Source: a virus | Lineage: Duplodnaviria > Heunggongvirae > Uroviricota > Caudoviricetes | DNA: 64,000 nucleotides | IMG/VR virus record: IMGVR_UViG_3300021963_000032 | Direction: 5' to 3' (one strand) | In this document: in pieces, positions 8,810 to 52,572 of the stretch | Numbering within the stretch: position 1 is the first letter of the stretch | How the letters are laid out: each line of letters begins with the position of its first letter | Notes under the pieces: generated by a model | What the model was told of the DNA's origin: nothing | What the model saw: only the letters and a program-made list of their open reading frames with translations | The model's database searches: none | Translations under genes and position numbers: made by a program

Positions 8810-8847
8810 CTGTTGCAGAATCGTTATCTATGTTGTATCTTTACGGC

Positions 8848-9771
8848 ATGAAAAACGAACAGAACCTAGGATATGCATGCATCAATATGCAGCTCCGTAA
8901 GCAAAACATTTTTACCGGTAGAACTTGTCGTAAAGCTACATTCCAAGAGAAGGGTTTAGATTACGTAGGCGAATTAGGATTGCAGAATGTCCGAGACTTA
9001 TATCAAATCGTCCAGTGGAACAGCCGCAATAACATTAAGATGTATCGTATCGGTTCAGATATCTTTCCGTGGCAGAGTGAGTATAAGTTGGAACAACTAC
9101 CTCAGTATACTAAGATTGTTAACTTGCTCAAAGCTATTGGAGACTATGTTACAAAAGATGGTCAACGACTATCATTCCATCCAGGGCCATTTAATATTCT
9201 AGGATCTACTAAGCCTGGTGTTGTTGAGCGTACTATTGTCGACCTGCAGAATCACTCAGAGATATTTGACTTAATGGGATTCGAACCTAGCCCGTACAAT
9301 AAGATTAACATCCACGTTGGAGCTACGTATGGTGATAAGGAGGGTACATTAGATCGCTGGTGTAATAACTTTAAGCGTCTCAATGAGAGAACACGGAAAC
9401 GCATCACATTAGAGAATGACGATAAGGAGAGTATGTATACGATTGTAGACCTACTATGGGCACACGAACGCGTTGGTGTTCCGTTGGTGTTTGATTACCA
9501 TCACCATAACTGCCACCCAGGAGATATTGATCAACAGACAGCTTTGCAATATGCAATGAGTACTTGGCCAGAGGGAATTAGACCAGCTGTGCATTATTCA
9601 TCTTCTCGTAGGCTAAACGAAGATAGCAGTGTCAAAGTACAAGCACATGCTGATTACATATACGAAAAGATTGATACGTTCGGTTATGATATTGATATCA
9701 TGTTGGAATGTAAAGCAAAGGAGCTTGCCTTGTTGGAATATCGAAAAAAACATAGTATATTAGTAGCATGA
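8848..9771 (+). CDS. uvdE: UV damage endonuclease (UvdE family)
   Basis: LGYACINMQL...KMYRIGSDIFPW...HPGPF...INIHVG matches UvdE. The start is taken at the ATG just after the promoter motif at 8813-8844. Confidence 0.6.
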   Translation: MKNEQNLGYACINMQLRKQNIFTGRTCRKATFQEKGLDYVGELGLQNVRDLYQIVQWNSRNNIKMYRIGSDIFPWQSEYKLEQLPQYTKIVNLLKAIGDYVTKDGQRLSFHPGPFNILGSTKPGVVERTIVDLQNHSEIFDLMGFEPSPYNKINIHVGATYGDKEGTLDRWCNNFKRLNERTRKRITLENDDKESMYTIVDLLWAHERVGVPLVFDYHHHNCHPGDIDQQTALQYAMSTWPEGIRPAVHYSSSRRLNEDSSVKVQAHADYIYEKIDTFGYDIDIMLECKAKELALLEYRKKHSILVA

Positions 9772-9882
9772 AAATTATAACAACAATAACTACATCAATC
9801 ATACACATACTAAGTGGGACGTGGTTAGTGTACGGAATCGTACGTATGGTAGTTAGAATACAAAACGCATTAAAGGATTAAT

Positions 9883-10152
9883 ATGAAACAAATAACAACC
9901 GGAATAGCAGTAACCTTGGCATTTATGTTGGGAATGTACATTTTAACAAAAGCTAAACCACGCTATCCAGAAAGTACACTATACCATTGTAGGGTGAATA
10001 AGGTAGTAGAAGAGTTTCCACATGGAGGTATCACACCAGATGTAAGGTATAGGTTAACAACAGATGAGGGCTTTGTAGTATTTTCGTACAACCGAGAATT
10101 TTCAGTAGGGGACTCAATCGAAGTCCGAGTAGTAAGAATAAGTAAACAATAA
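9883..10152 (+). CDS. hypothetical membrane protein
   Basis: N-terminal TM helix. Confidence 0.35.
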   Translation: MKQITTGIAVTLAFMLGMYILTKAKPRYPESTLYHCRVNKVVEEFPHGGITPDVRYRLTTDEGFVVFSYNREFSVGDSIEVRVVRISKQ

Positions 10153-10165
10153 AAACCAAATAAGT

Positions 10166-10393
10166 ATGTATTTTACAGTTTCAGTTAAAGTGTCATTCGA
10201 AGATGACAAAGGAAAAGTTAAGAAATCAGTTGAGCGTTACCTAGTAGACGCAATGTCAGTAACAGAAGCGGAAGCTAGAACAACAGAGTTCATGAAGTCA
10301 GATACACGTGACTCAGAGATCGTAGCTGTTAATCAGTCTCGTATTCTTGAAGTGATTAGTCCAAAGGAAACTCCTGATGTTTATGGAAAGTAA
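10166..10393 (+). CDS. hypothetical protein
   Basis: ORF. Confidence 0.35.
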   Translation: MYFTVSVKVSFEDDKGKVKKSVERYLVDAMSVTEAEARTTEFMKSDTRDSEIVAVNQSRILEVISPKETPDVYGK

Positions 10394-10607
10394 TTTTCAA
10401 CCTGATTCTATCGTACAAGCCGTTATTCAGCGGTTTGTCGATAGAGCCAAGTTTGGTCACGAGAAGTATGGAACTGACTTGGATAGAAAGGATCTAACAA
10501 TGGATGAGTGGATCCAACACGCTCAAGATGAATTGCACGATGGTATTCTATATCTTGAGAAAATAAAGCAAACTCTTAAAGAGTTTAACAAAACAATCAA
10601 TATTTAG
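10377..10607 (+). CDS. hypothetical protein
   Basis: ORF. Confidence 0.35.
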   Translation: MFMESNFQPDSIVQAVIQRFVDRAKFGHEKYGTDLDRKDLTMDEWIQHAQDELHDGILYLEKIKQTLKEFNKTINI

Positions 10608-10634
10608 TAGTAACACTAACCAATAACACACAAG

Positions 10635-10865
10635 ATGATTACATGCAAAGTATGTGGTAATGAGATACCAGAGGGAAGATTAAAAGCAGTACCAGGAACA
10701 AAAACATGCGTACAACATTCAACAGCAACTAAGTTCGCTGCAAATGTAGTAAGCTACGGGAATGCCGAGGCAGGCGACCTTGTCAACGAAATTGAAATCG
10801 TAAGAGATGCAAAAGCAGTTGAGCAATTGAATCACTACTCAAAACAAATTGGTTCATATAAGTAA
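10635..10865 (+). CDS. DksA/TraR-family C4 zinc-finger protein
   Basis: CKVCGNEIPEGRLKAVPGTKTCVQHS pattern. Confidence 0.45.
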   Translation: MITCKVCGNEIPEGRLKAVPGTKTCVQHSTATKFAANVVSYGNAEAGDLVNEIEIVRDAKAVEQLNHYSKQIGSYK

Positions 10866-11062
10866 TGGCTGACGATCGTTCTGAGATATTTAGAGCTATG
10901 AGTAATAGGTATAGATTAAAGGTTATACTAGCTGAGCTAGGTACCGAACCGAACCTAACTCAAATATCATTTATCCAGGATTGCATCGAGATAGCTAAGC
11001 TTGAACCAGACAGTAGCACTAATAAAATTATACAAGATGCTTTTGAGAGAATTAGAAGATAA
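10865..11062 (+). CDS. hypothetical protein
   Basis: ORF with ATGA overlap. Confidence 0.35.
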   Translation: MADDRSEIFRAMSNRYRLKVILAELGTEPNLTQISFIQDCIEIAKLEPDSSTNKIIQDAFERIRR

Positions 11063-11399: not shown

Positions 11400-11793
11400 C
11401 GATCAAGACTTTTCACATATAGATTACACTGAGTGTCCTATTTGTGGTAATGAAGCAATCAGTGAAGTAGTACATGAAACCCACGAAGAGAATATACAAT
11501 GCCACAGCTGCGGTTATGCTAGACGAATGTCGATCATCGATGGCAAGCTAGATATGCAGGAGTATGTCAATCACGGGTGCTATAAGGTACAGATGAAAGG
11601 ATCACCCACATTAGAGTGCGGATCGTTCACAACACCAGAAGCAGAACAAGCGTTTGTAGAATTAATAAATAATTTAGGAGAAAAAGTTGCACATGCGGAA
11701 TATTCTAAGTATATTAACGAAACAATCGAGACCACAGTGGTCGTAGACGGAGAAATACATAAAATACAAATAGATGAGCAAGAACAGCAGTAA
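11383..11793 (+). CDS. hypothetical zinc-ribbon protein
   Basis: CPICGN...CHSCGY. Confidence 0.4.
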   Translation: MTIQNNDQDFSHIDYTECPICGNEAISEVVHETHEENIQCHSCGYARRMSIIDGKLDMQEYVNHGCYKVQMKGSPTLECGSFTTPEAEQAFVELINNLGEKVAHAEYSKYINETIETTVVVDGEIHKIQIDEQEQQ

Positions 11794-12110
11794 GCAGTTA
11801 GTAGAGCAAGTACAGTCATGGGTTAGCTGGATTGCAGCAGTAGGAAGAAGAAATCAAAATAATCCAAAGAAATACGAAAAAAAAGTTGCATACGAGAGTA
11901 AAAAGGAGTATGTTAGTAAAAAGAGTTAATACTTATAAGGGAATGAAAGCATTGAACAACATATTACGCAATACAACGATTAGCATGTCGAGACATGAAT
12001 GGTCAGCGTGTGGAGTGCCGTTTAATGTCCTTGATCCAAAACAGTATCAATCACAATCTCGGGTTTTAGTATGAAGTAACGAATAAAAAAGTTAAATTAT
12101 ATATAAAAGG

Positions 12111-14465: not shown

Positions 14466-14509
14466 CAAAAATAATTGTTCATAACTTTGTAATTATTTTG
14501 ATATAACTG

Positions 14510-14546
14510 TTGCAAACACCACAACAATGGAGTATCTTTAGGTATA
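14510..14546 (+). promoter_or_regulatory. Conserved phage promoter motif (TTGCA...TATCTTTAGGTATA) driving the tRNA sub-cluster
   Basis: CTGTTGCAAACACC...AGTATCTTTAGGTATAAG, preceded by the GTTCATAACTTT upstream element. Confidence 0.55.
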
Positions 14547-14679: not shown

Positions 14680-14699
14680 TAAAAAAGTTAACAAAAGTG

Positions 14700-14730
14700 T
14701 TGACTTATCGAAACAAAAGGAGTATATTTA
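14700..14730 (+). promoter_or_regulatory. Promoter variant (TTGAC...TATATTTA) with duplicated leader GTTCATTGACATAGTGGTAAACAAACAAAC
   Basis: Near-duplicate of the 14510-14591 promoter-leader unit, placed upstream of the second tRNA sub-cluster. Confidence 0.5.
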
Positions 14731-14765
14731 TAAAAGTTCATTGACATAGTGGTAAACAAACAAAC

Positions 14766-15763: not shown

Positions 15764-15772
15764 CACAAAAAG

Positions 15773-15803
15773 TTGCAAATAAGAAAAGAAAGTTGTATAT
15801 TAA
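15773..15803 (+). promoter_or_regulatory. Promoter motif (TTGCAAAT...TGTATATTAAA)
   Basis: Same TTGCA -33 and TAnnTTTA -7 architecture as the other promoter instances. Confidence 0.45.
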
Positions 15804-15819
15804 AAGAAAAGAAACAGTT

Positions 15820-19650: not shown

Positions 19651-19716
19651 TTCTACTTAACTGTTGCAAAATCGGTATTAAGGTAGTATATTTACTACAT
19701 AAAATTAATACTAGTT

Positions 19717-24540: not shown

Positions 24541-24966
24541 ATGGAACTACTTAACTCCCACCCAATCAAGAAGTCTGACCTAGGCTTTCATGGTAATCTC
24601 TTTGGAGGAAAGCTCCTAGCATGGATTGATGCATCAGCTGCAGGATATGCAATGCAGCTATGTGATACACCAAGAATGGTTACGGTATCAATTGATCAGT
24701 GTAACTTTGAGAAGCCAGCCCGAGAAGGTCAGCTACTGAAAATATATGGAAAGCCTGCCTCAGTAGGTAATAGCTCTGTCTCTTTGTATATGGAAGCAAG
24801 AGCACACAACGTATATACTGGGAAGCAGATTATCGTATTAAAGACCCATATCAAGTTCGTACACATAGACGAAGGTGGGTATCCAATTCCAGTAGGAGAG
24901 AAAGGTAGAAGTAGAATTACTAGAATAATAGAAAGTAGTAGCAAAATCGAAACAAAATTACTATAG
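24541..24966 (+). CDS. Hotdog-fold acyl-CoA thioesterase-like protein
   Basis: GNLFGGKLLAWIDASAAGYAM resembles the YciA/4HBT thioesterase signature. Confidence 0.45.
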   Translation: MELLNSHPIKKSDLGFHGNLFGGKLLAWIDASAAGYAMQLCDTPRMVTVSIDQCNFEKPAREGQLLKIYGKPASVGNSSVSLYMEARAHNVYTGKQIIVLKTHIKFVHIDEGGYPIPVGEKGRSRITRIIESSSKIETKLL

Positions 24967-25112
24967 TTAGGCATGAGTATCGGAGAACAAACACTAAGCA
25001 CAATGATGCCTTTGTTACAAGATGTAGCAACAAAGCATGGGTTGAGATTATACATCGCACGTGAGTTTAAGATGGCTCGATTTCTACTAGCAAATGTTTA
25101 CTTAAATTTTAT

Positions 25113-25826
25113 ATGATAGTTACTTTAATTTCAGACACGCACACAAAGCATAACCAAATCACAAAGGATCTTCCTGGTGGTGATTTATTAATCCATGCCG
25201 GTGACTTTATGTCCTCAGGTTACAGCCCTTATGAAGCAGAAGAGTTCTTTAAGTGGTTTGATAAAATTAACAACTATGACACAAAAGTGTTCATTGCAGG
25301 TAACCACGATCGATTAATGGAGAGTGATCCTGAATGGGCTAGTGGTATTCTAACCGGATACAAGACTATAGAATACCTACAAGACGATTGGTTGGGGATA
25401 TATAACGATGGTCCTAATGGTGATCTACCGGAAGAGAATGTACGCATCTACGGTTCACCATGGCAACCTGAGTTCTACGATTGGGCTTTTAATTTACCAA
25501 GACATAGTGAAGAGATGAAAGCACGTTGGGATGCAATTCCTGATTTTACAGATATCCTAATAACACACGGACCTCCATTCGGTCACTTAGATATTCCAGG
25601 TGGAGGAAGACCTATACGAGTTGGATGTGAAATGCTACGTGCACGAGTTGATGTAGTTAGACCAAAGATTCATGTGTTTGGACATATCCATGGAAGTCAC
25701 GGTTACTACTACGATGGGCACACTCACTTCTTCAATGCTTCTGCACTGAATGAGAGGTATGAGTATCGCAATCTACCATTCACATTTGATTGGAATCATT
25801 TAACTAATGAAATTAAATGGTTGTAG
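25113..25826 (+). CDS. Calcineurin-like metallophosphoesterase
   Basis: DTH...GDF...GNHD...HGP...GHIHG motif series. Confidence 0.55.
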   Translation: MIVTLISDTHTKHNQITKDLPGGDLLIHAGDFMSSGYSPYEAEEFFKWFDKINNYDTKVFIAGNHDRLMESDPEWASGILTGYKTIEYLQDDWLGIYNDGPNGDLPEENVRIYGSPWQPEFYDWAFNLPRHSEEMKARWDAIPDFTDILITHGPPFGHLDIPGGGRPIRVGCEMLRARVDVVRPKIHVFGHIHGSHGYYYDGHTHFFNASALNERYEYRNLPFTFDWNHLTNEIKWL

Positions 25827-25854
25827 TTCGGATATAAAGTCGTATCTTTAGATC

Positions 25855-26868: not shown

Positions 26869-26880
26869 TTTAACAAGCTG

Positions 26881-34398: not shown

Positions 34399-35910
34399 AT
34401 GAATCCATTATTTTTAACAGACGGGTACAAGACGGGACACCACAAGCAGTATCCAGAGGGAACCACATTAGTGTATTCCAACTTCACACCACGTAGCAAC
34501 AAGTATGCTCCGAAGGGTTGTGATAAAGTAGTATCATTTGGTCAGCAATTGATCATGAAACAGATCCACGAAGCCTTTGAGAAAGACTTCTTTCATCAAC
34601 CAAAGGAGCACGTGTGTGCTGAGATCAAACGTGAGTTGTCAATGTACTTAGGTACCGACTATGACGTATCTCACTTCGAGGCGTTATGGGATCTACAGTA
34701 TCTTCCAATCAAAGTGAAAGCTATTAAAGAAGGTACATTGGTTCCAATTAAAGTTCCAGTGTTAACAATCGTCAACACACATCCAGACTTCTATTGGATC
34801 ACTAACTACTTGGAAACAATCATCTCCAATATGTTATGGAAGCCAATGACCTCTGCAACAATTGCACATCAGTACAAGAAAGTACTAGAGCATTGGGCTG
34901 AGAAGACTAACCGTGATGCGATGGAGTTTGTTAATTGGCAGGGACATGACTTCTCTATGAGAGGTATGGATTCTACTGAAGCGGTTATCTCTTCGGGATT
35001 AGGTCACTTAACTTCATTCCTAGGATCTGACTCACTTCCAGCTATCTACGGAGCTAGAAAGTATTACGGTGAGACAGAGTTTGTTGCAGGATCAGTAAAT
35101 GCTACAGAGCACTCAGTAATGTGTGCAGGTACAAAGGATGACGAGGTTGGAACATTCCGTCGCTTGTTGACCGAGACTTATCCATCAGGAATCTTATCAG
35201 TAGTATCTGACACTTGGGATTTGTGGAAAGTATGTACCGAACACGTAGTTACATTAAAAGATGAGATTATGGCTCGTGACGGTAAGTTAGTTATCCGTCC
35301 TGACTCAGGTGACCCAGTAGATATTCTTTGTGGTTTAAATACTAGAAGTGAAGAATTTAAGAAAAATTGGTTGGACACTGCTACTCGAAATAATGGTGAA
35401 TATGAAGGAGTTATTGAAATACTTTGGAATGTATTCGGAGGAACTATCAATGAACAAGGTTACAAAGTACTTGACCCACACATCGGAGCAATCTACGGAG
35501 ACTCAATCACAATCGACAGAGCAAATGAAATCTGTGCTAGATTAGAAGCAAAAGGGTTTGCATCTACAAACGTAGTGCTAGGTATCGGATCATTCACATA
35601 CCAATACAACACACGTGATACATTTGGGTTTGCAATGAAAGCAACCTATGTTGAGGTGAATGGTGAAGGTAGAGAGATATTCAAAGATCCAATCACAGAT
35701 GATGGAACTAAGAAGTCTGCAACCGGATTGCTATGTGTTCAACCACTGAGTGACGGAAGCATCTACTTAATGGACAAAGTTAGTTGGGATAGTGAAGATA
35801 AGGGACTACTCGCTAGCATCTATGTTGATGGTAAGTTCCACAATGTTACTACTCTGTCAGATGTTCGTGCTAACTTGAGAACTGCTAACCTATTAGAAGA
35901 GCTAGTGTAA
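34399..35910 (+). CDS. nadV: Nicotinamide phosphoribosyltransferase homolog (NAMPT/NadV-like, or NARP1 Namat-like)
   Basis: N-terminal LFLTDGYKTGHHKQYP matches the NAMPT TDSYKxxHxxQYP signature. The 503-aa length fits the family. Confidence 0.65.
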   Translation: MNPLFLTDGYKTGHHKQYPEGTTLVYSNFTPRSNKYAPKGCDKVVSFGQQLIMKQIHEAFEKDFFHQPKEHVCAEIKRELSMYLGTDYDVSHFEALWDLQYLPIKVKAIKEGTLVPIKVPVLTIVNTHPDFYWITNYLETIISNMLWKPMTSATIAHQYKKVLEHWAEKTNRDAMEFVNWQGHDFSMRGMDSTEAVISSGLGHLTSFLGSDSLPAIYGARKYYGETEFVAGSVNATEHSVMCAGTKDDEVGTFRRLLTETYPSGILSVVSDTWDLWKVCTEHVVTLKDEIMARDGKLVIRPDSGDPVDILCGLNTRSEEFKKNWLDTATRNNGEYEGVIEILWNVFGGTINEQGYKVLDPHIGAIYGDSITIDRANEICARLEAKGFASTNVVLGIGSFTYQYNTRDTFGFAMKATYVEVNGEGREIFKDPITDDGTKKSATGLLCVQPLSDGSIYLMDKVSWDSEDKGLLASIYVDGKFHNVTTLSDVRANLRTANLLEELV

Positions 35911-37117: not shown

Positions 37118-37128
37118 ATGCACAGCTG

Positions 37129-37160
37129 TTGCAAAATCGGTATTGATGTAGTATCTTTAC
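37129..37160 (+). promoter_or_regulatory. Conserved phage promoter (TTGCAAAATCGG...TAGTATCTTTAC)
   Basis: Family motif 4 nt upstream of the ATG at 37164. Confidence 0.55.
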
Positions 37161-37163
37161 CAC

Positions 37164-37820
37164 ATGATTGATAACAAAGAGCAAATTAAAGGTCTACTTA
37201 ACTTCAGCGAACCTGGAGACTTCTACATGCTATATGTAATGAAGCGTAAGAAGGACCAACCCGAAGGTGAAAGAGATAATCACCAATCCGTAAGAACAAT
37301 CCGTTCGTACTGCATTAAGTCTATCGAGCAGTTAGACAAACGTTGGGAGGAGATTGTGATGATGTGTGAGATGTTCAAAGCTCGTGCATACATTCACGTA
37401 CAGAAACAGAACCACAAAGATGTATCGCTCAACATGATGATGGCATTAGCTCAGAGAATCCAAGATGGTAACCACGAGCAGCAGTCACTATTCGATTCAG
37501 TAGTAGGTCAGTTGAAGACGCATGAGAAGAGATGGATCGTTGACATTGATATTCCTGATCCCCATGCCGCTAGGGAGCTTGCTACGTACATCAACAGCCT
37601 CCGACCGGTAGGATCAAAGTGTGAAGCTGTCATTCCTACTAAGAATGGATACCACCTAATCACTGGTAGGTTTGATGTTAAGACATTTAGTGAGAAGTTT
37701 CCTGACATTGACATTCAGAAGAAGAATCCAACCTTACTATACTATCCAAACAGCCTAGAACAAGCTTCTGCGGTAGCCCCACCACCACCTCCACCAGATC
37801 GATTATCAAAAGGATTTTAA
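37164..37820 (+). CDS. hypothetical protein with C-terminal poly-Pro
   Basis: ORF with a PPPPPPD tail. Confidence 0.4.
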   Translation: MIDNKEQIKGLLNFSEPGDFYMLYVMKRKKDQPEGERDNHQSVRTIRSYCIKSIEQLDKRWEEIVMMCEMFKARAYIHVQKQNHKDVSLNMMMALAQRIQDGNHEQQSLFDSVVGQLKTHEKRWIVDIDIPDPHAARELATYINSLRPVGSKCEAVIPTKNGYHLITGRFDVKTFSEKFPDIDIQKKNPTLLYYPNSLEQASAVAPPPPPPDRLSKGF

Positions 37821-38061: not shown

Positions 38062-38345
38062 TGAGCAATCTACAGAGAAGGACAACTGCAGCCTACGGCA
38101 TAGAGCGATGGTTAAGCAGCAAAGGTTACAAAGTAACCAACAAGACTACAGCAGATATGACTTGTGCATTCCTCAAGACGAAAGGACTGCAGTACACTAA
38201 GTTCAACTCAAGGTATAGAGGGAACTGGACTCCTATTGTATGTAACGCTCTGTCTGTGCAAGAATACTTTACAGAATTTACTCAATTTATTTTAAAAAAT
38301 TATCCGCTAGCTGTTGCACCGACGGAAAATAGTGCTGATCTTTAG
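38061..38345 (+). CDS. hypothetical protein
   Basis: ORF. Confidence 0.3.
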   Translation: MSNLQRRTTAAYGIERWLSSKGYKVTNKTTADMTCAFLKTKGLQYTKFNSRYRGNWTPIVCNALSVQEYFTEFTQFILKNYPLAVAPTENSADL

Positions 38346-38352
38346 GTATAAA
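38314..38352 (+). promoter_or_regulatory. Conserved phage promoter (TTGCA-N22-CTTTAGGTATAAAAGAAAGAGAGAT)
   Basis: Family motif upstream of the ATG at 38366. Confidence 0.5.
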
Positions 38353-38365
38353 AGAAAGAGAGATA

Positions 38366-38754
38366 TGAAAAAAGAAGCAAAAGTAGAGTACGGGATCACG
38401 ATCACGAAGCCATGGAGCAAAGAGATGTATGAACACAATGACACATTGGCAGAAGTTGTTAAAGACAAAGTTTTGAATATGTGGAATGAAGCCTACGAGG
38501 CTGCGGAAGCTGAGTTTGTTGATGAAGATGAGTTAGGAAATGAGTTTGGTGATCTGTATTGGGATGCCGCTAGTGATGAGATGGTAAGGATTCAAAAAGC
38601 CATTACATACTATTCGTTTTCAAATCAGAACATTATCGAAGTTGCAGAAGAGGTTGTAGACACCTTAGAGAATATGCCAACCTTCCAGCTTAGAGAGTTA
38701 GTAGAGGAGTTAGAGATCGAATTAGAAAAAGGTTTTATTGGTTTTAATAATTAA
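38366..38754 (+). CDS. hypothetical acidic protein
   Basis: ORF downstream of the promoter. Confidence 0.4.
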
Positions 38755-39538: not shown

Positions 39539-39604
39539 ATTCACTTTAAATGTTGCAAAGCTGGATCTTTGTGACGACCTTTAGGTATAAATAAAAAGAG
39601 AGAT

Positions 39605-40693
39605 ATGAAGTTACAAACACTATTTAAGCGAGCTACCAACGGAAAGGTGTTGGAGCATACATTCGAGATTGAAGGTAATGGTTACCGTACGATTTCAGGA
39701 TACGTTGATGGAGTGAAGACCACAACAGAATGGACCTACTGCCAAGGGAAGAATATTGGTAGAAGTAATGAAACCACACCGGAAGGTCAAGCACTAGCAG
39801 AAGCTAAGGCTGAGTGGAAGAAACGTACAGAGCGCAACTACTTTGCTAAGGTTGCTGACATAGACAATGGTACAATGTTCAAACCCATGCTCGCTAACAA
39901 GTGGGAAGACTATGCTGACAAGATTCAGTATCCTATCTACTCTCAACCTAAGTTGGATGGTATTAGATGTATCGTAAGAGAGGATGGTATGTGGACACGA
40001 ACCGGTAAACCAATCGATTCAGCACCACACATCTTTGAAGCACTTGCACCACTATTTGCAGAGAATCCAGATCTTATCTTCGACGGGGAATTATATGCTG
40101 ACAAGTATGCTAATGACTTCAACGCTATCGTATCGCTAGTGAAGAAGACCAAGCCAACAGCTAAGGACCTAGAAGACAGTGCAAAGGTTATTAAGTATCA
40201 CATCTACGACTTACCAAGCTGTGAGGAAGTATTCACTAAGAGATACAAAACACTACAGAGCATAGAGTTGCCTGAGTGCTGCGTGAAAGTAGTAACAGAT
40301 CAAATAGACAACTTGAATGATGTTGCAGGATACTACGGAGACTATATGTCAGCCGGGTATGAAGGTCAGATGCTACGAGTAGATGGAATGTACGAGAACA
40401 AACGCTCTAAGTCATTACTCAAGCATAAGTCATTCATCGATGAGGAATATACAATCGTAGGGTATGAAGAGGGTAACGGAAACCTAGCTGGAATGATCGG
40501 AGCATTAGTATTCCAAACAGCACAAGGTGATAAGTTCACAGCATCAGTGAATGGTGGGTGGGAACATCTCAAACAACTATGGAGTGAAAGAGATACTCTA
40601 GTCGGACAAGAAGCTACTATCAAGTACTTCAACATCACACCGGATGGTAAACCAAGATTCCCTAAAGTAACAGCAATCAGAAACTATGAGTAA
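39605..40693 (+). CDS. lig: ATP-dependent DNA ligase
   Basis: Motif I KLDGIR, motif IV EGQMLR, motif V LLKHK, in canonical order. Confidence 0.65.
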   Translation: MKLQTLFKRATNGKVLEHTFEIEGNGYRTISGYVDGVKTTTEWTYCQGKNIGRSNETTPEGQALAEAKAEWKKRTERNYFAKVADIDNGTMFKPMLANKWEDYADKIQYPIYSQPKLDGIRCIVREDGMWTRTGKPIDSAPHIFEALAPLFAENPDLIFDGELYADKYANDFNAIVSLVKKTKPTAKDLEDSAKVIKYHIYDLPSCEEVFTKRYKTLQSIELPECCVKVVTDQIDNLNDVAGYYGDYMSAGYEGQMLRVDGMYENKRSKSLLKHKSFIDEEYTIVGYEEGNGNLAGMIGALVFQTAQGDKFTASVNGGWEHLKQLWSERDTLVGQEATIKYFNITPDGKPRFPKVTAIRNYE

Positions 40694-41695: not shown

Positions 41696-42030
41696 CGATA
41701 GACATTCATACTATGTGAGATGAGTAGAGTCACGATTCATAAGATAGACACTAGTATAGTAAAGGAGGGTTTGTATATCATAGGTGGGAGGGCGGACGTA
41801 TACACATTCCTCCCGCGCGAACCAAATTTTTGCTATAGAAGTTATACACTCAACACATGTGCATATCTTTTCATAACCTTCCTTCCCTCTCTACCCCCGT
41901 GTAACTAACTGATACTCAGGAGGTTACTCCAACCGGTACCCTCTGTGCCCCCCAGGAATCTAATACAACTGGGAAGTTATGAACCGAGGATTGTGCAAAA
42001 CTTTTTCTTTTATTTTTTTGTCCCTAGCTG

Positions 42031-42069
42031 TTGCTAGATCGAATAAAAGGGAGGACCTTTAGGTATAAA
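42031..42069 (+). promoter_or_regulatory. Conserved phage promoter (TTGCT-N22-CTTTAGGTATAAAGATTGAGAGAT)
   Basis: Family motif upstream of the ATG at 42081. Confidence 0.5.
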
Positions 42070-42080
42070 GATTGAGAGAT

Positions 42081-44309
42081 ATGAATAATACACAGACACA
42101 GACTTATCAAGAATTGCTTCGCAAGGCGCTGGGCAAGAAGAACACTAACACTGCCGCGCGTAAGTTAGATGTCAAGAAGAACTATGCTAGCTTCTGGATG
42201 GATGACTTAGGAAAGGGTAACGATCGCTTTGGTCTTGGTAGTGACTTCTCTGGGAAGAGTAGTGACATCGTCAAGGCTATCAAGTTGAACTCTTACCGTA
42301 AGGCGATTGCAAACTTCGTTAAGATCCTTACTAACAAAGAGATCCCCGTGAGGTTTGCTGGTAGTGATTCTTACACAGATGGTAAGAGTGTTACTATCTC
42401 TTCTGATATTAAGGACAATAACTTTGATGTCTCTGTGGGATTGGCCTTGCACGAGGCTTCTCACATTTTGTTGACTGACTTCTCTGTCCTTCCCGCACTA
42501 CGTGATGGGAAGATTGAAGCAGCTAAAGACTTGGACGGAAGGTTGGTTAAAGACCTTTTGAACTTCATTGAAGATAGACGTATTGACCACTATGTGTTTA
42601 GTACTTCTCCTGGGTACAAAGCTTACTACCACAAGTTGTATGAGCACTACTGGAACAATGACAAGACGGTTATCAAAGGCCTTTTGTCTGCTAAGTTCAG
42701 AGATGCTAAGAAGCTTGACAGTTGGATGTTCCAGATCATCAACATGATGAATCCCGCATTTGATGCGACTGTTATGCCTCGCTTGCAGGAGATCGTTACC
42801 TTGATTGGAATACCGACTATCAGTCGTTTGAAGTCTACACAAGACGCTCTTGACATTGCCATCCAGGTTGCACAGATCATCACAGACGAGATGCGCCAAG
42901 CGATCGAAGATGCAGCTAGCCAACCGGAGCCAGAACAAGGGCCAGGTCAGCCTAGTCCGGATGCAGACGGTGAAGCAGGAGAGGATCAAGAGTCCGGCAG
43001 TGAAAGTGATGATTCAAGTGAAAGTGATGATGGAAGTGAAAGTGATGATGGAAGTGAAAGTGATGATTCAAGTGAAGAAGGTCAGGGATCTAGTGAGGGT
43101 GAAGAAGGGGAAGACGGAGACGGAGAAGCTTCTACCGGTGGTACTGATCTGACTCCAGAAGAAGAGGCTGCTATCGAGAAGGTGCTTAGAGAGCAACGTA
43201 AGTTCATGGACGGAGAGAGCGGGAAGAAGCAGGCAGGTAGAAACCTCGAAAGAAAGTTAGATAAGACTGAGAAAGAGGGAGTTACGATCGAGCAAGTAGG
43301 TGGCAAGTATACTTGTCTTAACTACGATGTTACCGGTAAGGAGTTCGTTGCCGCAGCTGATGCGAAGGATAAGATACAAGAAGCTAGAAACAATGTGTAC
43401 AAGGAAGCATACGGATCACCAGCGAAGAAGGCAGCAGAAGCAGCATTAGCTGAGCTCCGCACTACTAGTGAGTTATTAAGTAATGACTACTTCAGCAGTC
43501 CTAGTGCACGATATGCTAAGGCAATCGACAAGGGAATATTGATGGGACAGTTGCTTGGTAAGAAGCTACAGATGCGTAACGAGTCACGTGAGAGAATCGA
43601 TAACAGACTGAGAAGCGGGAAGATAGACAACAGACGTCTAGCAGCTGCAGGGTACGGAATCGAGAGCATCTTCCACCAGGTGACAATAGACAAGTACAAG
43701 AAAGCTAACCTACACATGAGCTTAGATGGCTCAGGCAGTATGGGAGGAACCAACTGGGAGAACACAGCCATGATGGCAGCAGCAATTGCTAAAGCTCTTA
43801 CCTTCACATCAAACGTGGCAATGCAGATATCAATCAGGGTAACAACTAACGATAGCGGAACCCTTCCTGCTAACTACTTCATCTACGATTCTCGCAAGAA
43901 TACACTAAGAGAGCTACAGGTGATACTAAAGGCATTCAATCCTAACGGGATGACACCAGAAGGTTTGTGCTTCGAGAGTATGCTTAAGAAGAACCAACTA
44001 GTGAAGTCTAGCGCAGACATGGATAGCTACTTCGTTAACCTTTCCGACGGAGGACCTGGAGGAGTAGGACAGTACGGAGGATCAGTTGCAACGGAGCATA
44101 CAAGAGCACAAGTTACTAAGATGCGTAACGAGCTAGGTATGGGAGTATTAAGCTACTTCATGACACAGTACGGAGGTACAGACTTCGCTAGCAGTGGTAG
44201 CGGTAGAGCTTTCCAGGCCATGTACGGAAAGGCAGCTACCAACATTGCACCGGACAACGTAATGGAGATTGCTAAGACACTTAACAATTTATTTATGAAC
44301 AAGGGATAA
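42081..44309 (+). CDS. CobT-like von Willebrand factor A domain protein with an acidic Ser/Asp/Glu repeat
   Basis: MIDAS-like HMSLDGSGSMGG. Internal (SESDDG/SESDDS)x4 and EGEEGEDGDGEA acidic tract. Partner CobS-like ATPase lies at 48707. Confidence 0.5.
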   Translation: MNNTQTQTYQELLRKALGKKNTNTAARKLDVKKNYASFWMDDLGKGNDRFGLGSDFSGKSSDIVKAIKLNSYRKAIANFVKILTNKEIPVRFAGSDSYTDGKSVTISSDIKDNNFDVSVGLALHEASHILLTDFSVLPALRDGKIEAAKDLDGRLVKDLLNFIEDRRIDHYVFSTSPGYKAYYHKLYEHYWNNDKTVIKGLLSAKFRDAKKLDSWMFQIINMMNPAFDATVMPRLQEIVTLIGIPTISRLKSTQDALDIAIQVAQIITDEMRQAIEDAASQPEPEQGPGQPSPDADGEAGEDQESGSESDDSSESDDGSESDDGSESDDSSEEGQGSSEGEEGEDGDGEASTGGTDLTPEEEAAIEKVLREQRKFMDGESGKKQAGRNLERKLDKTEKEGVTIEQVGGKYTCLNYDVTGKEFVAAADAKDKIQEARNNVYKEAYGSPAKKAAEAALAELRTTSELLSNDYFSSPSARYAKAIDKGILMGQLLGKKLQMRNESRERIDNRLRSGKIDNRRLAAAGYGIESIFHQVTIDKYKKANLHMSLDGSGSMGGTNWENTAMMAAAIAKALTFTSNVAMQISIRVTTNDSGTLPANYFIYDSRKNTLRELQVILKAFNPNGMTPEGLCFESMLKKNQLVKSSADMDSYFVNLSDGGPGGVGQYGGSVATEHTRAQVTKMRNELGMGVLSYFMTQYGGTDFASSGSGRAFQAMYGKAATNIAPDNVMEIAKTLNNLFMNKG

Positions 44310-44772
44310 AAAGTTATGAACCGGTAGCTTTAGAGGGGGTATGCCTAGAGGAGACTAGAGGGGTATCCCCCCCTATATAAGACGCGATCTAGCGAGGGGG
44401 ATGCCCCCATGAAAGACGGTGATATAGCAGGGGGATATCCCCTTAAAAACACGCTTAAAACACCGTAAAACACCCCCTATAATTACGTGAAAACCGAATG
44501 GATATCGCCCTATATTGGGGAGGTTACATGCGTTCACATTTCGATGCCAATTTTTTTGCTATAGCAACATTGACACTTCGATTACACTGCGTGTAATGTA
44601 TATGTTAAATCCTCCCTTCCCTCTTGGGAAGGTCAGGCCCATCCCCATGGGGAGCCTCGAGGTTAAAAGTGGCACCCCTTGTTCATAACTTATTCCAAAA
44701 CCGAGCATATTTATACAAGTAAACCGGAGGTAAAAAATAAAAAATTTAGTATATTTCCCCTATAAAACACAC

Positions 44773-48292: not shown

Positions 48293-48337
48293 TTGTTTGT
48301 ATCGGTTCATAACTTTTAAATTATTTTTGTTTAGCTG

Positions 48338-48376
48338 TTGCATATCCGGATTGATCGGGTGTCCTTTAGGTATAGA
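48338..48376 (+). promoter_or_regulatory. Conserved phage promoter with upstream ATCGGTTCATAACTTT element
   Basis: TTGCA-N22-CTTTAGGTATAGATAAAAAGAGAAAGAT upstream of the ATG at 48392. Confidence 0.55.
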
Positions 48377-48391
48377 TAAAAAGAGAAAGAT

Positions 48392-48622
48392 ATGAAAAAT
48401 TCAATTTTAGACAAGAACGGAGCAGAGCTTCAAGTTGGTACAGTAGTAAGTCACAAGACCGGGTGGGTACGAATCACACGATTGAACAGTAAGTGGTGTA
48501 ACCTTGGTGCAATCTGGGGTGGTAGGGTTTATGAGAAGAAAGTTCCTCTTAGTGAGATCTTTGCCGACGAAGTTGCTTGGTATGAGGCTTGGACTAAAAC
48601 AGATCAGTACAGATGCATGTAA
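48392..48622 (+). CDS. hypothetical protein
   Basis: ORF. Confidence 0.4.
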   Translation: MKNSILDKNGAELQVGTVVSHKTGWVRITRLNSKWCNLGAIWGGRVYEKKVPLSEIFADEVAWYEAWTKTDQYRCM

Positions 48623-48650
48623 AAAAAATGAAAAAAAATTGCACTAACTG

Positions 48651-48696
48651 TTGCAAACACGGAAAACAGTCCTGACCTTTAGGTATAGATTTAAAG
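48651..48696 (+). promoter_or_regulatory. Conserved phage promoter
   Basis: TTGCAAACACGG...CCTGACCTTTAGGTATAGATTTAAAGAGAGAT upstream of the ATG at 48707. Confidence 0.55.
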
Positions 48697-48706
48697 AGAG
48701 ATAAAA

Positions 48707-49924
48707 ATGATTATTAAAAACACAAAAACACAAGTTATGAGTAAATTTCCAATGATTGCCGAAGTAAAGATGGCCCCTGGCAAAGGCGGTAAGATGGTTG
48801 TTAAAGCCTTCGATTCAGTTTCCGGAGAGGAAGTGAAAGGTATTGTTTATGTAACGCTTCAAGGAGCTTACAAAGCTGGTATGAACCTTGCTAAGATGAG
48901 TGAAGATTCTTCTTTCACTCGAGTTGATTCTACTGTCTCTGTTGAGATGTTAGAGCAGATTATTAGTGGTGCTGAGGTTTCAGTTCCGGAGGTTGCTCCT
49001 GCTACTAATGACGTTATGTCTTTCTTAAAGACTTGTGTTGAGAAACGTCCAGAGACACTCTACATTGAGGACCTTAACTGGAAGTTTATGTGTCGTACTG
49101 CGATGCGTGGAGGTAATATGTTGATGACTGGTCCTACCGGATGTGGTAAGTCTCAGACAGCCATTGCGGTTGCTAAGGCTCTTGGACGTGAGTTGTTCTA
49201 TGTTAACTTAGGTGCTACTCAAGATCCTCGAGGAACATTGATTGGTAACACTCACTTCTCTAAAGAGGTTGGTACTTTCTTTAACGAGTCTGCTTTCGTA
49301 AAAGCCATTCAGACTCCTAACACAGTGATCTTGCTTGATGAGATTTCTCGTGCGCATCCTGAGGCTTGGAATATCTTGATGACGGTTCTCGATCCAGGAC
49401 AGAGATACTTGAGATTGGATGAGGCTGTTGGAGCTCCTACAGTACACGTTGCAGAGGGAGTAGCGTTCATCGGAACTGCTAACATTGGTAGTGAGTATAC
49501 TGCCACAAGAGTAATGGACCGAGCGTTGTTAGACCGATTCACTATCGCTGAGATTCCTTACTTAACTGTAGCTCAGGAGTCTAAGTTGCTGACTCAGTTA
49601 CACCCAGGATTGTCTAAGAAAGTTTGTCAGAACATCGCTGAGATTGCTGGTCAGACTCGTACAGAGGTTATGACAGATAGTCCACGAATCTCTAGTGCGA
49701 TTTCGACTCGTGCAGCGATTGAGATGGCCGGGTTAATGTCTGACGGATTCGCAATCGAAGAGACAGCTCAAGTAAGTATCTACCCACTGTACTCTAACGA
49801 CGGAGGTATGCAGTCTGAGAGAACTTATGTGAAGCAGTTGGTTCAGAAGTACATCAACGATGGAACTGCTGATAACTTGACGGGTGCTGAAAGTGCTGAG
49901 GTTGAATCAAACTTACCTTTCTAA
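48707..49924 (+). CDS. CobS-like / MoxR-family AAA+ ATPase
   Basis: Walker A LMTGPTGCGKSQ. Walker B ILLDEISRAHPEAWNILMTVLD. Confidence 0.55.
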   Translation: MIIKNTKTQVMSKFPMIAEVKMAPGKGGKMVVKAFDSVSGEEVKGIVYVTLQGAYKAGMNLAKMSEDSSFTRVDSTVSVEMLEQIISGAEVSVPEVAPATNDVMSFLKTCVEKRPETLYIEDLNWKFMCRTAMRGGNMLMTGPTGCGKSQTAIAVAKALGRELFYVNLGATQDPRGTLIGNTHFSKEVGTFFNESAFVKAIQTPNTVILLDEISRAHPEAWNILMTVLDPGQRYLRLDEAVGAPTVHVAEGVAFIGTANIGSEYTATRVMDRALLDRFTIAEIPYLTVAQESKLLTQLHPGLSKKVCQNIAEIAGQTRTEVMTDSPRISSAISTRAAIEMAGLMSDGFAIEETAQVSIYPLYSNDGGMQSERTYVKQLVQKYINDGTADNLTGAESAEVESNLPF

Positions 49925-49926
49925 TC

Positions 49927-51109: not shown

Positions 51110-51150
51110 TAAGATCGGTTCATAACTTTCTATTTATTTTCTTGCAGCTG

Positions 51151-51196
51151 TTGCATGGCTGGATATATGTCCTGACCTTTAGGTATAGATTTAAAG
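51151..51196 (+). promoter_or_regulatory. Conserved phage promoter with upstream GATCGGTTCATAACTTT element
   Basis: Near-identical to the promoter at 48651, including CCTGACCTTTAGGTATAGATTTAAAGAGAGATAAA. Confidence 0.55.
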
Positions 51197-51226
51197 AGAG
51201 ATAAATTAATTACTAAAACACAAGTT

Positions 51227-52036
51227 ATGAAAACAATCGAATTAACACCTGCCGAATTAGAGTTGATCCAAGTAAAGCGTCAACAAGAGGAATTAGCCGC
51301 TCAAGAAGCTGCTGTTCAAAACCAACTTGCAATCGAGAAAGAAATTGCTCGAGTTAACCTCCAAGTTGAAGGTTATATTAAGCAAGAAGCTCAACAAGTG
51401 AAAGCTGCTGGTGAGTTTGCTTTACAAATGCCATCCGTAGGATTTCATGTTGATACTAGAGATCTCGAAGCTAAAGCCACTTACAAGAGTGAAGTTGTTG
51501 ACACGATCAAGTATCAAGAACAAGTAGCCTACATGCTTAAAGATGGTTATAAGATTTCGGTCAGAGAACACATCGTGTATAGTAGATATGGTGGACGTGG
51601 TAGAAGTCAGGGATATAAGATGTATGTTACCGGTCCTGGTATTGACTACAAGACTTCAAACCGTGGTTACAAAAATACCAAGAAAGTGATCGAATTAATC
51701 GAAGACACAATCGAGTCAATCAAAGCTAAAGAGTTGTTTATTGCAAAACAGAAAGGTGCGGTTGAGTCTACTGTTGCAAAGTTGACACAAGAGTTTCCTA
51801 AAGCTAAGGTGATTTCGAGTCGTGGTTGTAAGATCAATCCTTACGGATCTCCTTCTAACAGATACACTGAGTATGATAAAGTTGAAGTGAAATTGCCTAA
51901 CGGAGTTAACATAGAGTACCGAGTTCATTCAGATGGCTACATGGAACGATTAGGAATTACCTACCCTAAACACGACACAATGGAATTGATTTCAATGTTA
52001 AATAATTTAGAATTTTCTTCCGAAACTGTTGCCTAA
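51227..52036 (+). CDS. hypothetical protein
   Basis: ORF. Confidence 0.4.
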   Translation: MKTIELTPAELELIQVKRQQEELAAQEAAVQNQLAIEKEIARVNLQVEGYIKQEAQQVKAAGEFALQMPSVGFHVDTRDLEAKATYKSEVVDTIKYQEQVAYMLKDGYKISVREHIVYSRYGGRGRSQGYKMYVTGPGIDYKTSNRGYKNTKKVIELIEDTIESIKAKELFIAKQKGAVESTVAKLTQEFPKAKVISSRGCKINPYGSPSNRYTEYDKVEVKLPNGVNIEYRVHSDGYMERLGITYPKHDTMELISMLNNLEFSSETVA

Positions 52037-52067
52037 TCAAATATAAGTCACGACCTTTAGATATAAG
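52029..52067 (+). promoter_or_regulatory. Conserved phage promoter overlapping the 3' end of the upstream gene
   Basis: TTGCC-N22-CTTTAGATATAAGAAAGAGAT upstream of the ATG at 52076. Confidence 0.45.
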
Positions 52068-52075
52068 AAAGAGAT

Positions 52076-52309
52076 ATGAATACTGAACTAAATACCCGAA
52101 CAGACGTTATCAAAGCTTTGGTGGCGGAGTTCAACGAAAAGCCAGCCGGTTTTAACAATAACGAGAGAACCAAGTCAAATGAGAAGTTTTGGACCTTCAA
52201 CCGATTGTTCCATTATTATTGGGATTTGAAACATGGTCGTAAAGGTACTTACCGTACCACCCTCAATCCTGCTACCGGTTTTTATGAACTTAATAAACAA
52301 CAATCATGA
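52076..52309 (+). CDS. hypothetical protein
   Basis: ORF. Confidence 0.35.
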   Translation: MNTELNTRTDVIKALVAEFNEKPAGFNNNERTKSNEKFWTFNRLFHYYWDLKHGRKGTYRTTLNPATGFYELNKQQS

Positions 52310-52530
52310 TAAAGAAGTTGAGTGAAATGCCACGTGCAGAGAAGATTGAAATTGATTTAACTGGTCCTGAGGGCAATGCCCACTACCTAATAGGCCTAGC
52401 TACTAACCTTTGTGATAACTTTGACTTAGATGCTGTTGTTGTTCGTAAAGAGATGATGGCTAGTGATTACGAAAACTTGCTTGAAGTATTTGATAATTAT
52501 TTTGGTGAAATAGTGAATTTATATCGCTAA
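52306..52530 (+). CDS. hypothetical protein
   Basis: ORF with ATGA overlap. Confidence 0.35.
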   Translation: MIKKLSEMPRAEKIEIDLTGPEGNAHYLIGLATNLCDNFDLDAVVVRKEMMASDYENLLEVFDNYFGEIVNLYR

Positions 52531-52534
52531 AAAG

Positions 52535-52572
52535 TTGCACCGGTGGAATTAAGTCACGACCTTTAGGTATAA
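52535..52572 (+). promoter_or_regulatory. Conserved phage promoter
   Basis: TTGCA-N22-CTTTAGGTATAAAAGAAAGAGAGAT upstream of the ATG at 52586. Confidence 0.5.

Follow-up and report, generated by a model that had tools for sequence, protein, structure and literature searches.

A strand-specific family of predicted host-type promoters in the tRNA, repair and nucleotide-metabolism region of a large uncultured phage

What reads a sequence element that a phage carries two dozen times over, on one strand and in nearly invariant form? This question is raised by a 64-kb stretch of Caudoviricetes DNA (IMG/VR record IMGVR_UViG_3300021963_000032; the whole stretch is called the window here), in which a block built around TTG is followed at a fixed distance by a box ending in TTTA, and for which an original prediction, made from the letters alone, had listed at least 18 such sites as a phage promoter family. 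Here, we establish the anatomy of this family, its bias in strand and position, its conservation in related phages and its coincidence with synteny breakpoints, and from these we infer its activity, the form of the polymerase, its start site and its timing. Our favored reading, held with moderate confidence, is that the elements are sigma-A-type promoters for the host RNA polymerase and act as the main promoters of a region given over to tRNAs, repair and the metabolism of nucleotides and nicotinamide adenine dinucleotide (NAD).

A 40-nucleotide (nt) weight matrix, seeded with the 17 sites whose TTG coordinates had been given and iterated to convergence, returned 24 sites scoring 19-45 bits, all on the plus strand and none on the minus strand. 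The next-best matches on either strand of the window scored below 9 bits, leaving a gap to background of more than 10 bits, and shuffled sequence gave 0-2 matches; the exact string CTGTTGCAW likewise occurs 13 times on the plus strand and never on the minus strand, with 1.34 occurrences expected. All 17 seed sites are members, and the family is therefore real, strand-specific and larger than had been noted; the seven additions lie at 11687, 11886, 14700, 15773, 24939, 25820 and 63455 (sites are named by the T of TTG), with 62622 as a weak eighth candidate. Exact copies of CTGTTGCAA at 6742 and 51771 are intragenic, have no -7 box and were rejected as chance matches. The motif is not equally frequent within coding sequence: at 22 of the 24 sites a called start codon or tRNA follows the predicted +1 at a distance of -1 to 60 nt, a zone that takes in 13% of positions (binomial P = 8e-18), and at a 23rd, 14510, the predicted +1 falls 41 nt upstream of an unannotated stretch that is tRNA-like by eye.

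Positions were numbered after the start-site maps of Flavobacterium johnsoniae and F. psychrophilum, in which TAnnTTTG occupies -12 to -5 and transcription starts 4-5 nt after the box (PMC6847099, PMC9723704), so that the T of TTG is -35, the A of TTTA is -5 and +1 is TTG+35. In this register, the consensus reads A-A/G-C-T-G-TTG-C-A, N4, CG, about N12 and (T/G)A-Y-M-TTTA. Its strongest block, worth 13 bits, is the -33 element (A-40 R-39 C-38 T-37 G-36 T-35 T-34 G-33 C-32 A-31), which is followed by C-26 G-25, G/T at -16 and (T/G)-12 A-11 Y-10 M-9 T-8 T-7 T-6 A-5 G-4; summed over -41 to +6 the family carries about 36 bits, and a weaker AT-rich stretch spans -55 to -47. Each letter of TTG is conserved at 23 of the 24 sites, and a fixed gap of 20 bp leads from it to the -7 box, where A-11 (23/24), T-8 (22/24), T-7 (24/24) and T-6 (21/24) stand out. 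All 24 sites have the proposed spacing of 27 nt from the T of TTG to the TTT, including 39553, which aligns without a gap and had wrongly been given a longer spacing. Apart from -5, where A replaces the host G, and from G at -12 in nine sites, the architecture fits that of Bacteroidota sigma-ABfr promoters (-33 TTTG/TTG, -7 TAnnTTTG), as was also anticipated, and does so in exact register with the published start sites: both have A-11 and T-8/T-7/T-6 in a box spanning -12 to -5, TTG lies 20 bp upstream of it, the start (here an implied one) comes 4-5 nt after it, the sequence upstream of -40 is AT-rich and no Shine-Dalgarno signal follows.

The source phage is large, lytic and without a cultured relative, and several metagenome assemblies contain the same phage at 99.9% identity. 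Its host is almost certainly a member of the Bacteroidota, to judge from the genes and start regions of the window, because the 661-residue protein encoded at 17665 bears a CHU_C type IX secretion signal, because homologues of this protein lie nearly all in Bacteroidota genomes (the best, at 63%, in Crocinitomicaceae and Flavobacteriales) and because positions -15 to -4 before start codons are depleted in G. This same depletion means that a Shine-Dalgarno signal is missing; a phage bS21-like motif was not found in any of the six reading frames.

Relatives were sought by taking loci that encode CobS-like proteins from viral contigs and scanning them with the matrix. The same motif is present in the closest of them, IMGVR_UViG_3300008267_000477 (88% CobS identity), L012, L005, L009 and L002; a 14-mer scan of viral contigs for GACCTTTAGGTATA gave mostly single chance matches, the only related loci being L078, L005, L002, L009 and L012. 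The distant lineages L149, L141, L162 and L173 each have a very uniform version of their own, with TTG, a Y-G 6 nt later, a TATCTTTA-type box and GTATA. When position -5 was left unscored, 74 sites in relatives carried A 57 times, G 10 times, T 6 times and C once, and the choice between A and G proved lineage-specific, several sister lineages of CobS-encoding phages using a fully canonical TTTGG...CGTATATTTG. These canonical sister promoters suggest, therefore, that the whole group models its promoters on the host consensus and that A-5 is a lineage trait.

To tell selection from copying as the source of the uniformity, promoters of the window were paired with their orthologues (nine pairs) in two relatives that share about 70-85% identity with it in coding regions. 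Orthologous pairs agree at 85% of high-information positions and 56% of other core positions, non-orthologous pairs between genomes at 76% and 44%, and paralogous pairs within the window at 77% and 43%. Because paralogues resemble each other no more than do non-orthologous promoters of different genomes, and because orthologous promoters retain their own spacer sequences, this comparison indicates that the high-information positions are held by selection and not by recent duplication or gene conversion. A few pairs are exceptions: 38314 and 52535 are 96% identical over +1 to +25, and 51151 combines parts of 48338 and 48651. As a separate observation, the promoter-plus-leader cassettes of L149, L141, L162 and L173, all CobS-encoding viral contigs, are near-identical over about 60 nt (for example GTCTTGGCCATTTGCAAAAAAGGTCTTATCTTTAAGTATAATAAAAAATAAAGGTTATG in L149); their cassettes being more uniform, copying or gene conversion may matter more in these lineages than in the window phage.

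The distance from promoter to coding sequence divides the family in two. The original prediction had separated a class A from a class B, and the consistent difference between them is the gap between box and ATG: 3-5 nt for A, 16-26 nt for B. Exactly 4 nt separate TTTA from the ATG at 8813, 25820, 26881, 31257 and 37129, 3 nt at 24939 and 5 nt at 63455. Since the ATG then stands at the predicted +1, as in leaderless mRNAs such as that of lambda cI from PRM, class A probably consists of leaderless genes; judged by this spacing, they would follow 7 of the 24 promoters (29%), a share well above the 5.5% of mRNAs published for F. psychrophilum and the 3.7% for Bacteroides thetaiotaomicron. Pfam matches start at residue 7 (UvdE) and residue 4 (HAD phosphatase) when counted from the ATGs in the leaderless position, and the orthologous pair 37129/L012:10389 is identical without a break from the C at -1 through the first 25 nt of coding sequence. 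Among 84 independent sites in related phages the gap is bimodal (3-4 nt at 8 sites, between 5 and 13 nt at 3, mostly 14-25 nt), and an ATG exactly 4 nt after the box is found at 6 sites in relatives and 5 in the window. The same spacing, as TTTG-N4-ATG, precedes three Bacteroidota chromosomal genes in the loci fetched. The Bacteroidota genome contigs L213, L226 and L229 show TTG-N20-21-TA(T/A)ATTTG-N4-ATG before chromosomal homologues of the protein with the type IX secretion signal, an apparently leaderless layout in which -5 is the canonical G.

At the remaining protein-gene sites the gap is mostly 16-26 nt, the long cases being 45 nt (51151), 56 nt (11687) and 26 nt (11886). Class B leaders are A/G-rich and 11-21 nt long; GGTATA(A/G)A marks their start, and GAGAT or AGTT often comes last before the ATG. 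Of the earlier assignment of 19664 to class A, the box holds, and the ATG does not, as ATA stands in its place and the gene starts 18 nt after the predicted +1. The suggestion that A and B are temporal classes finds no support here: the -33 block and TTTA are common to both, and 14510, 32533 and 34346 are hybrids with a class A box and a class B GGTATA downstream. Nor do enzymes belong to A and small unknown proteins and CobS/T to B, as had been thought, since B precedes the genes for NAMPT, DNA ligase, a CCA-adding-type enzyme and a PRPP-synthetase-like protein, and A precedes several small unknown proteins. GAGAT-ATG also stands before two internal genes that have no promoter of their own, at 38760 and 52786; it could be a translation context there, or these may be relics of cassettes, because the ortholog of 38760 has its own promoter in a relative. 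Two other registers for class B were rejected: TAGGTATA as the true -7 box would put TTG 26 bp away and fits TAnnTTTG worse than the GACCTTTA register, and TATA(A/G)A as a T4-late-like TATAAATA is fully matched at 39553 only.

Promoters also coincide with several of the places where these genomes differ in gene order. Four of the seven non-collinear junctions with IMGVR_UViG_3300008267_000477 lie within 60 nt of a promoter (50221|42028, 52080|39576, 40693|52558 and 52592|38747), and three insertions or deletions relative to L012 adjoin one. The DNA-ligase module moves with its promoter (39553) and lies elsewhere in the relative, the junction falling within the promoter, and the sequence to the left of the 52535 promoter matches the flank of one promoter in the relative while that to its right matches the flank of another, a pattern that recombination between promoter copies would produce. 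Repeat matches within the window further identify the 51151 promoter as a mosaic, its left half like 48338 and its right half like 48651.

Taken with the host maps, these features suggest the following mechanism. Host RNA polymerase would bind TTG at -35 to -33 within the A-A/G-C-T-G-TTG-C-A block and would also contact the (T/G)A-Y-M-TTTA box at -12 to -5, 20 bp downstream of TTG, and transcription would begin 4-5 nt after the box. At seven sites it would start at the A of the ATG or within 1 nt of it, giving a leaderless mRNA translated from its 5'-terminal AUG, and at the other protein-gene sites it would produce a short G/A-rich leader, mostly of 12-22 nt, that has no Shine-Dalgarno sequence and often ends in GAGAU or AGUU. 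Transcription units would probably overlap by read-through, because few sites have a terminator upstream: a hairpin with a T-run precedes only 32533, 37129 and 48338 (3/24). Recombination at the repeats or beside them would have relocated, added or removed modules made up of a promoter and its gene.

A parallel is offered by the early promoters of T4 (the 'uber' UP/-35/TGn/-10 promoters), whose 'additional regions of consensus' go beyond all host elements and yet are read by unmodified host polymerase (Hinton 2010, PMC2988021). Like the family described here, they occur in dozens of copies on one strand in a region of small, tRNA and nucleotide-metabolism genes, and their consensus exceeds the host elements, the proposed purpose being to out-compete host promoters (PMC2988021). 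They differ in that they follow another host promoter grammar and match the host consensus perfectly, whereas the phage family departs from its host's at a strongly conserved position, and in that there is no sign here of an injected modifier such as Alt. By this analogy, the window's promoters would be early or middle ones. T4 middle promoters (MotA box plus AsiA) are also alike in having a box of about 9-10 nt in the -35/-33 place, a host-like downstream element and the same kinds of genes; in contrast to them, the family keeps the host -33 TTG, and no MotA or AsiA family match was found among the ~58 window proteins scanned.

Several observations weigh against a plain host-polymerase promoter. 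Position -5 is A at 23 of the 24 sites, where the host maps give a nearly invariant G; position -12 is T at 15 sites and G at 9; and the canonical TTG-N18-21-TAHHTTTG is not enriched in the window (2 against about 1 expected). The -33 element, weak or undetectable in F. johnsoniae promoters, is here extended to a 10-nt block and is the strongest part of the consensus, and the CG at -26/-25 and the GGTATA(A/G)A start region of most leadered sites are extra to the sigma-ABfr pattern. The total information is also far above what locating 24 sites would demand. Furthermore, among 50,697 phage records neither megablast with 18 kb nor tblastn with the CobS-like protein, the RNA ligase and a structural protein brought up a close relative, be it cultured, annotated or transcript-mapped. 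The departures from the host consensus, together with the excess information, leave room for an accessory factor. As to the host preference at -5, TAHHTTTG and TAHHTTTA occur at few sites upstream of open reading frames in 259 kb of Bacteroidota loci, and a cruder count favors G where TTG lies upstream (0.116 vs 0.067).

These points bear most directly on the possibility that the promoters are real but are read with a phage sigma factor, or by a MotA/AsiA-like appropriation of sigma that recognizes the -33 block and perhaps the A-5/G-12 box; the family would then be a middle class, with GGTTCATAAC, an upstream element described below, as a further activator or repressor site. The original prediction took such a factor to be implied by the extended conservation. 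We regard it as possible and not required, and this reading as a whole as doubtful. It would account for A-5 at 23 of the 24 sites and at 57 of the 74 sites in relatives, for the lineage-specific choice between A and G at -5, for the nine sites where G replaces T at -12 and for the 13 bits of the -33 block. A variant box in F. psychrophilum that differs at -6/-5, TAnnTTGY, is listed among the motifs most likely to depend on an alternative sigma factor, and the genes served (ligases, the PNK-type phosphatase, tRNAs, nucleotide metabolism) correspond to genes that T4 expresses early or in its middle period (in part after PMC2988021). GGTTCATAAC is, moreover, conserved at a fixed spacing of 33 nt and has tandem copies 12 nt apart in relatives. 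However, no sigma factor, RNA polymerase, MotA, AsiA, helix-turn-helix protein or recognizable transcription factor was identified by Pfam or PHROGs in the ~58 of ~110 window proteins that were scanned, both host elements are present at the correct spacing, and sister lineages show the same architecture with a fully canonical host consensus. Because T4 early promoters show a similar excess with host polymerase alone, conservation beyond the host elements is not in itself a reason to invoke a phage factor; promoters of T7 are the classic example of information that exceeds the needs of the polymerase. A bolder version, which we rate as rather unlikely, is that CobS-encoding Bacteroidota phages form a clade with a promoter dialect of their own (A-5, optional G-12, the 10-nt -33 block and GGTTCATAAC), read by a phage-redirected polymerase and not efficiently by host sigma-A, in combination with heavy use of leaderless mRNA. 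If true, the dialect would be the Bacteroidota counterpart of sigma appropriation or of a phage sigma, allowing host TTTG promoters to be shut off while the phage's own are kept active.

The rearrangements invite another explanation, namely that the repeats are mainly recombination cassettes of the PeSL type, in which, among T4-type phages, early-promoter repeats stand at the edges of modules whose insertion, loss or relocation sets close relatives apart (Arbiol 2010, PMC2839356; Comeau 2014, PMC4122927), and that their uniformity stems from recent spread or gene conversion, promoter activity being secondary. The synteny breakpoints and indels against two relatives often lie on repeats, 51151 is a mosaic, the flanks of 52535 come from two sources and the copies in L149 and L162 are nearly identical over about 60 nt; as in PeSLs, the repeats mark boundaries of insertion, deletion or replacement between close relatives (four of seven junctions and the three L012 indels). 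What makes this account improbable is that paralogues within the genome are no more alike than non-orthologous pairs at low-information positions (0.43 vs 0.44), that orthologues retain their own spacers and that conservation is position-specific and sits on known polymerase contacts. The stem-loop half that defines a PeSL, a terminator hairpin, is present at 3 of the 24 sites only, so the elements are not composite PeSLs. That the motif instead acts as RNA, in processing, in termination or antitermination or by enhancing translation, would fit its strand specificity too and the recurrence of the GAGAT-ATG context at the promoterless internal genes 38760 and 52786. We consider this highly improbable: no fold is shared (mean z-score -0.41, with predicted structures varying by site), Rfam finds only the tRNAs and the tmRNA, the conserved blocks lie upstream of the coding start at the spacing of a two-element promoter, an ATG 4 nt after the box leaves no room for a leader element at seven sites, and the internal GAGAT genes may be cassette relics, the ortholog of 38760 having its own promoter. 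Finally, TTGCA/T resembles the -12 element TTGCW of sigma-54 promoters, it is matched in every site and TTGCAC or ATGCAC lies 5-6 nt upstream at a few; even so, we give a sigma-54 reading almost no credence. The GG dinucleotide that TGGCAC-N5-TTGCW requires at -24 is missing at 23 of the 24 sites, which rules out this reading of TTGCW; the second conserved block would fall at about +15, and the weak Sigma54_activat match of the CobS-like protein reflects generic AAA+ similarity. A sigma-70 reading (TTGACA, 16-18 nt, TATAAT) was likewise discarded, such pairs not being enriched (38 against 50.6 expected in 20 kb) and TTG standing 27 nt from the TATA(A/G)A that follows the box.

Promoter families modelled on the host promoter are known from phages; what is new is the phylum and a phage lineage for which none is described in the literature searched, where searches found no described promoter motifs of Flavobacterium or Cellulophaga phages. 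Little has been described of the transcription signals of Bacteroidota phages, and no member of this lineage is in culture. With 24 compact promoters of about 45 bp, some with a short leader and some with none, the family forms a clean testable set and could supply strong expression parts for Flavobacteria and Bacteroides, in which standard bacterial promoters fail. The consistent A-5 offers a handle on how a Bacteroidota sigma reads the -7 box and on whether phages exploit this, and the predicted share of leaderless starts (29%) makes the family a natural set on which to study leaderless translation in a phylum where Shine-Dalgarno pairing is not used. The breakpoints at promoters extend the idea of promoter-mediated module shuffling beyond T4-type coliphages.

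The window in which the sites lie has 39.6% G+C and carries nearly all of its long open reading frames on the plus strand. Its annotated genes encode glycosyltransferases (0.1-6.6 kb), UvdE, thymidylate synthase, a PNKP-type phosphatase, a CCA-adding-type enzyme, RNA ligase, a phosphoribosyl pyrophosphate (PRPP)-synthetase-like protein, NAMPT, DNA ligase and CobT-like and CobS-like proteins, and an array of 23 tRNA genes spans 12142-15764. Beyond the window, 10 kb on the 3' side (L203) encode large proteins with VanY and glycoside-hydrolase domains that are structural in appearance; the 5' side gave a single 1.4-kb contig.

All promoter sites below are on the plus strand. Among those predicted to be leaderless, 8813 (8808..8850; box TATCTTTA; 32 bits) has its +1 at 8848, the A of the UvdE ATG. 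The promoter at 25820 (25815..25857; box TATCTTTA; 28 bits), registered on a GGTTG, has the ATG of a 96-residue gene at +1 (25855), and its region is conserved in L012. At 26881 (26876..26918; 37 bits) the ATG at +1 (26916) opens the PNKP-type HAD phosphatase gene, at 31257 (31252..31294; 44 bits) that at 31292 opens a 78-residue gene followed by an SPFH/Band 7 gene, and at 37129 (37124..37166; 38 bits), which has a terminator upstream (37093-37117), that at 37164 opens a 218-residue gene; the ortholog of 31257, L012:4047, is likewise leaderless by spacing. Two members have diverged. Site 24939 (24934..24975; box TATAGTTA; 30 bits) has TAG for TTG and its ATG at 24973, before a 47-residue open reading frame and then a metallophosphatase gene, and 63455 (63450..63493; box TATAGTTA; 19 bits) has TTTGC and its ATG at 63491, for which no leader or one of 1 nt is predicted.

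Five promoters lie in or around the tRNA array. Site 11687 (11682..11722; box TATATTAA; 29 bits) is within the 3' part of the open reading frame 11383-11793, upstream of small open reading frames and the array, and 11886 (11881..11921; box TATGTTAG; 21 bits) is upstream of a 43-residue open reading frame and the tRNA-Thr at 12142. Within the array, 14510 (14505..14545; box TATCTTTA, then GGTATA; 38 bits) precedes the tRNA-like stretch 14586-14679, and 14700 (14695..14735; a GTGTTGAC variant; 27 bits) lies 31 nt upstream of the tRNA-Leu(tag) at 14766. At its end, 15773 (15768..15808; 27 bits) has a 12-nt leader to a 306-residue gene at 15820.

The other protein-gene promoters have leaders. That of 19664 (19659..19699; box TATATTTA; 41 bits) runs 18 nt to the gene at 19717, and that of 27773 (27768..27830; box GACCTTTA, then GATATA; 44 bits) runs 20 nt to a gene of the CCA-adding/poly(A) polymerase family, with the RNA ligase gene next. 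A hairpin and T-run terminator at 32500-32521 stands upstream of 32533 (32528..32586; 45.5 bits), which has a 16-nt leader to the PRPP-synthetase-like gene, and 34346 (34341..34401; 34 bits) has an 18-nt leader to the NAMPT gene. Site 38314 (38309..38367; box GATCTTTA, then GGTATA; 41 bits) overlaps the 3' end of the gene 38061-38345, and its 16-nt leader ends in AAAGAGAGAT before the ATG at 38365. The DNA ligase gene, of the ATP-dependent kind, follows 39553 (39548..39607; box GACCTTTA; 39 bits) after 17 nt; the gene for the CobT-like protein of 742 residues (a PHROGs match) follows 42031 (42026..42083; 45.5 bits), at which a synteny breakpoint falls (42028), after 15 nt; and the CobS-like AAA+ gene follows 48651 (48646..48709; 41 bits) after 21 nt. 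Smaller or unnamed genes follow 48338 (48333..48394; 34 bits; terminator 48271-48294 and an upstream element before it; 19-nt leader, 76 residues), 51151 (51146..51229; 36 bits; 41-nt leader, 269 residues), 52029 (52024..52078; 38 bits; overlapping the stop codon of the gene 51227-52036; 12-nt leader, 77 residues) and 52535 (52530..52588; 36 bits; 16-nt leader, 64 residues).

The upstream element GGTTCATAAC (or TGTTCATAAC) occurs on the plus strand at 14477, 44681, 48305 and 51118 and inverted at 41985 and 44322. The original prediction had noted it ahead of several TTGCA blocks; it is real and conserved before 14510, 48338 and 51151, but the copy at 44680 has no TTGCA promoter. At those three promoters the element starts exactly 33 nt before TTG, with its center near -64, as TGTTCATAACTTTG at 14476..14490 (where GTTCATAAC gives the start), GGTTCATAACTTTT at 48304..48318 and GGTTCATAACTTTC at 51117..51131, all on the plus strand; the fourth plus-strand copy (44680..44694) is 27 nt upstream of a TATTTATA motif. 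Of the two copies on the minus strand, that at 41974..41986, where the plus strand reads AAGTTATGAACCG, is 45 nt upstream of the TTG of 42031, and that at 44311..44323, directly after the CobT stop codon, is its exact 13-nt direct repeat (repeat family D15). In the relative, the ortholog of the 51151 promoter is preceded by a pair of elements 12 nt apart, of which the nearer keeps the 33-nt spacing. Tandem copies of a similar kind lie upstream of CobS in L124 and L125, and a single copy is found at 45 nt in L121. The element was not present in the distant lineages. By its placement it looks like a putative binding site for a regulator of a few promoters.

The gap after CobT (44310-44772, 463 nt) contains the GC-rich palindromes GGGGTATCCCC, GGGGGATGCCCCC and GGGGGATATCCCC and three AAAACAC repeats about 11 nt apart. 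Inverted GGTTCATAAC copies (44308-44321, 44681-44694) flank this gap, which is about 72% conserved in the closest relative; Rfam gives no match to it at E <= 1, and an origin-like or regulatory function is possible.

A second motif, CTATTTATA, occurs eight times on the plus strand and not on the minus strand, with 1.04 expected. Its copies lie at 17644, 46533, 50778, 53537, 56358 and 60299 and also at 6302 and 6995, all on the plus strand, with one more at L203:3791. Six are up to 36 nt upstream of the ATG of a gene, the gap being 4 nt at 56371, and at 50786 the motif overlaps the ATG. No TTG block lies upstream of the copies, and the L203 copy is in the structural-looking region beyond the window. 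From this placement, CTATTTATA is probably a separate, single-element promoter class, possibly a late one, and a better candidate for a temporal class than the A/B split.

Two stretches, 14586-14679 and 17076-17179, have tRNA-like acceptor and T arms (GTCAGG...CCTGAC) with long internal insertions. ARAGORN calls neither, and the Rfam tRNA model gives 36 bits for 17076-17179 and nothing for 14586-14679 at E <= 0.1. They may be tRNAs with a long variable arm or interrupted tRNAs, since no tRNA-Ser is called in the array. A repeat, GTTCATTGAC(G/A)TAGTGGTAAACAAACAAAC, occurs at 14562-14585 and 14736-14765, between the 14510 and 14700 promoters and their RNA genes, with a shorter copy at 17191-17200, after the tRNA-like stretch that ends at 17179; it may be a shared precursor leader or processing signal.

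Within the CobT-like gene (42996-43085), 4-5 tandem copies of the 18-nt repeat GGAAGTGAAAGTGATGAT encode an acidic repeat rich in Ser, Glu and Asp. The transfer-messenger RNA (tmRNA) gene at 62106-62486 (Rfam, 98.6 bits) has the predicted tag ANVELSTWTFEDVMAFVGGELAVAA and, together with the 23 tRNAs, the CCA-adding-type enzyme, the RNA ligase and the PNKP-type phosphatase, makes up a toolkit for translation and tRNA repair.

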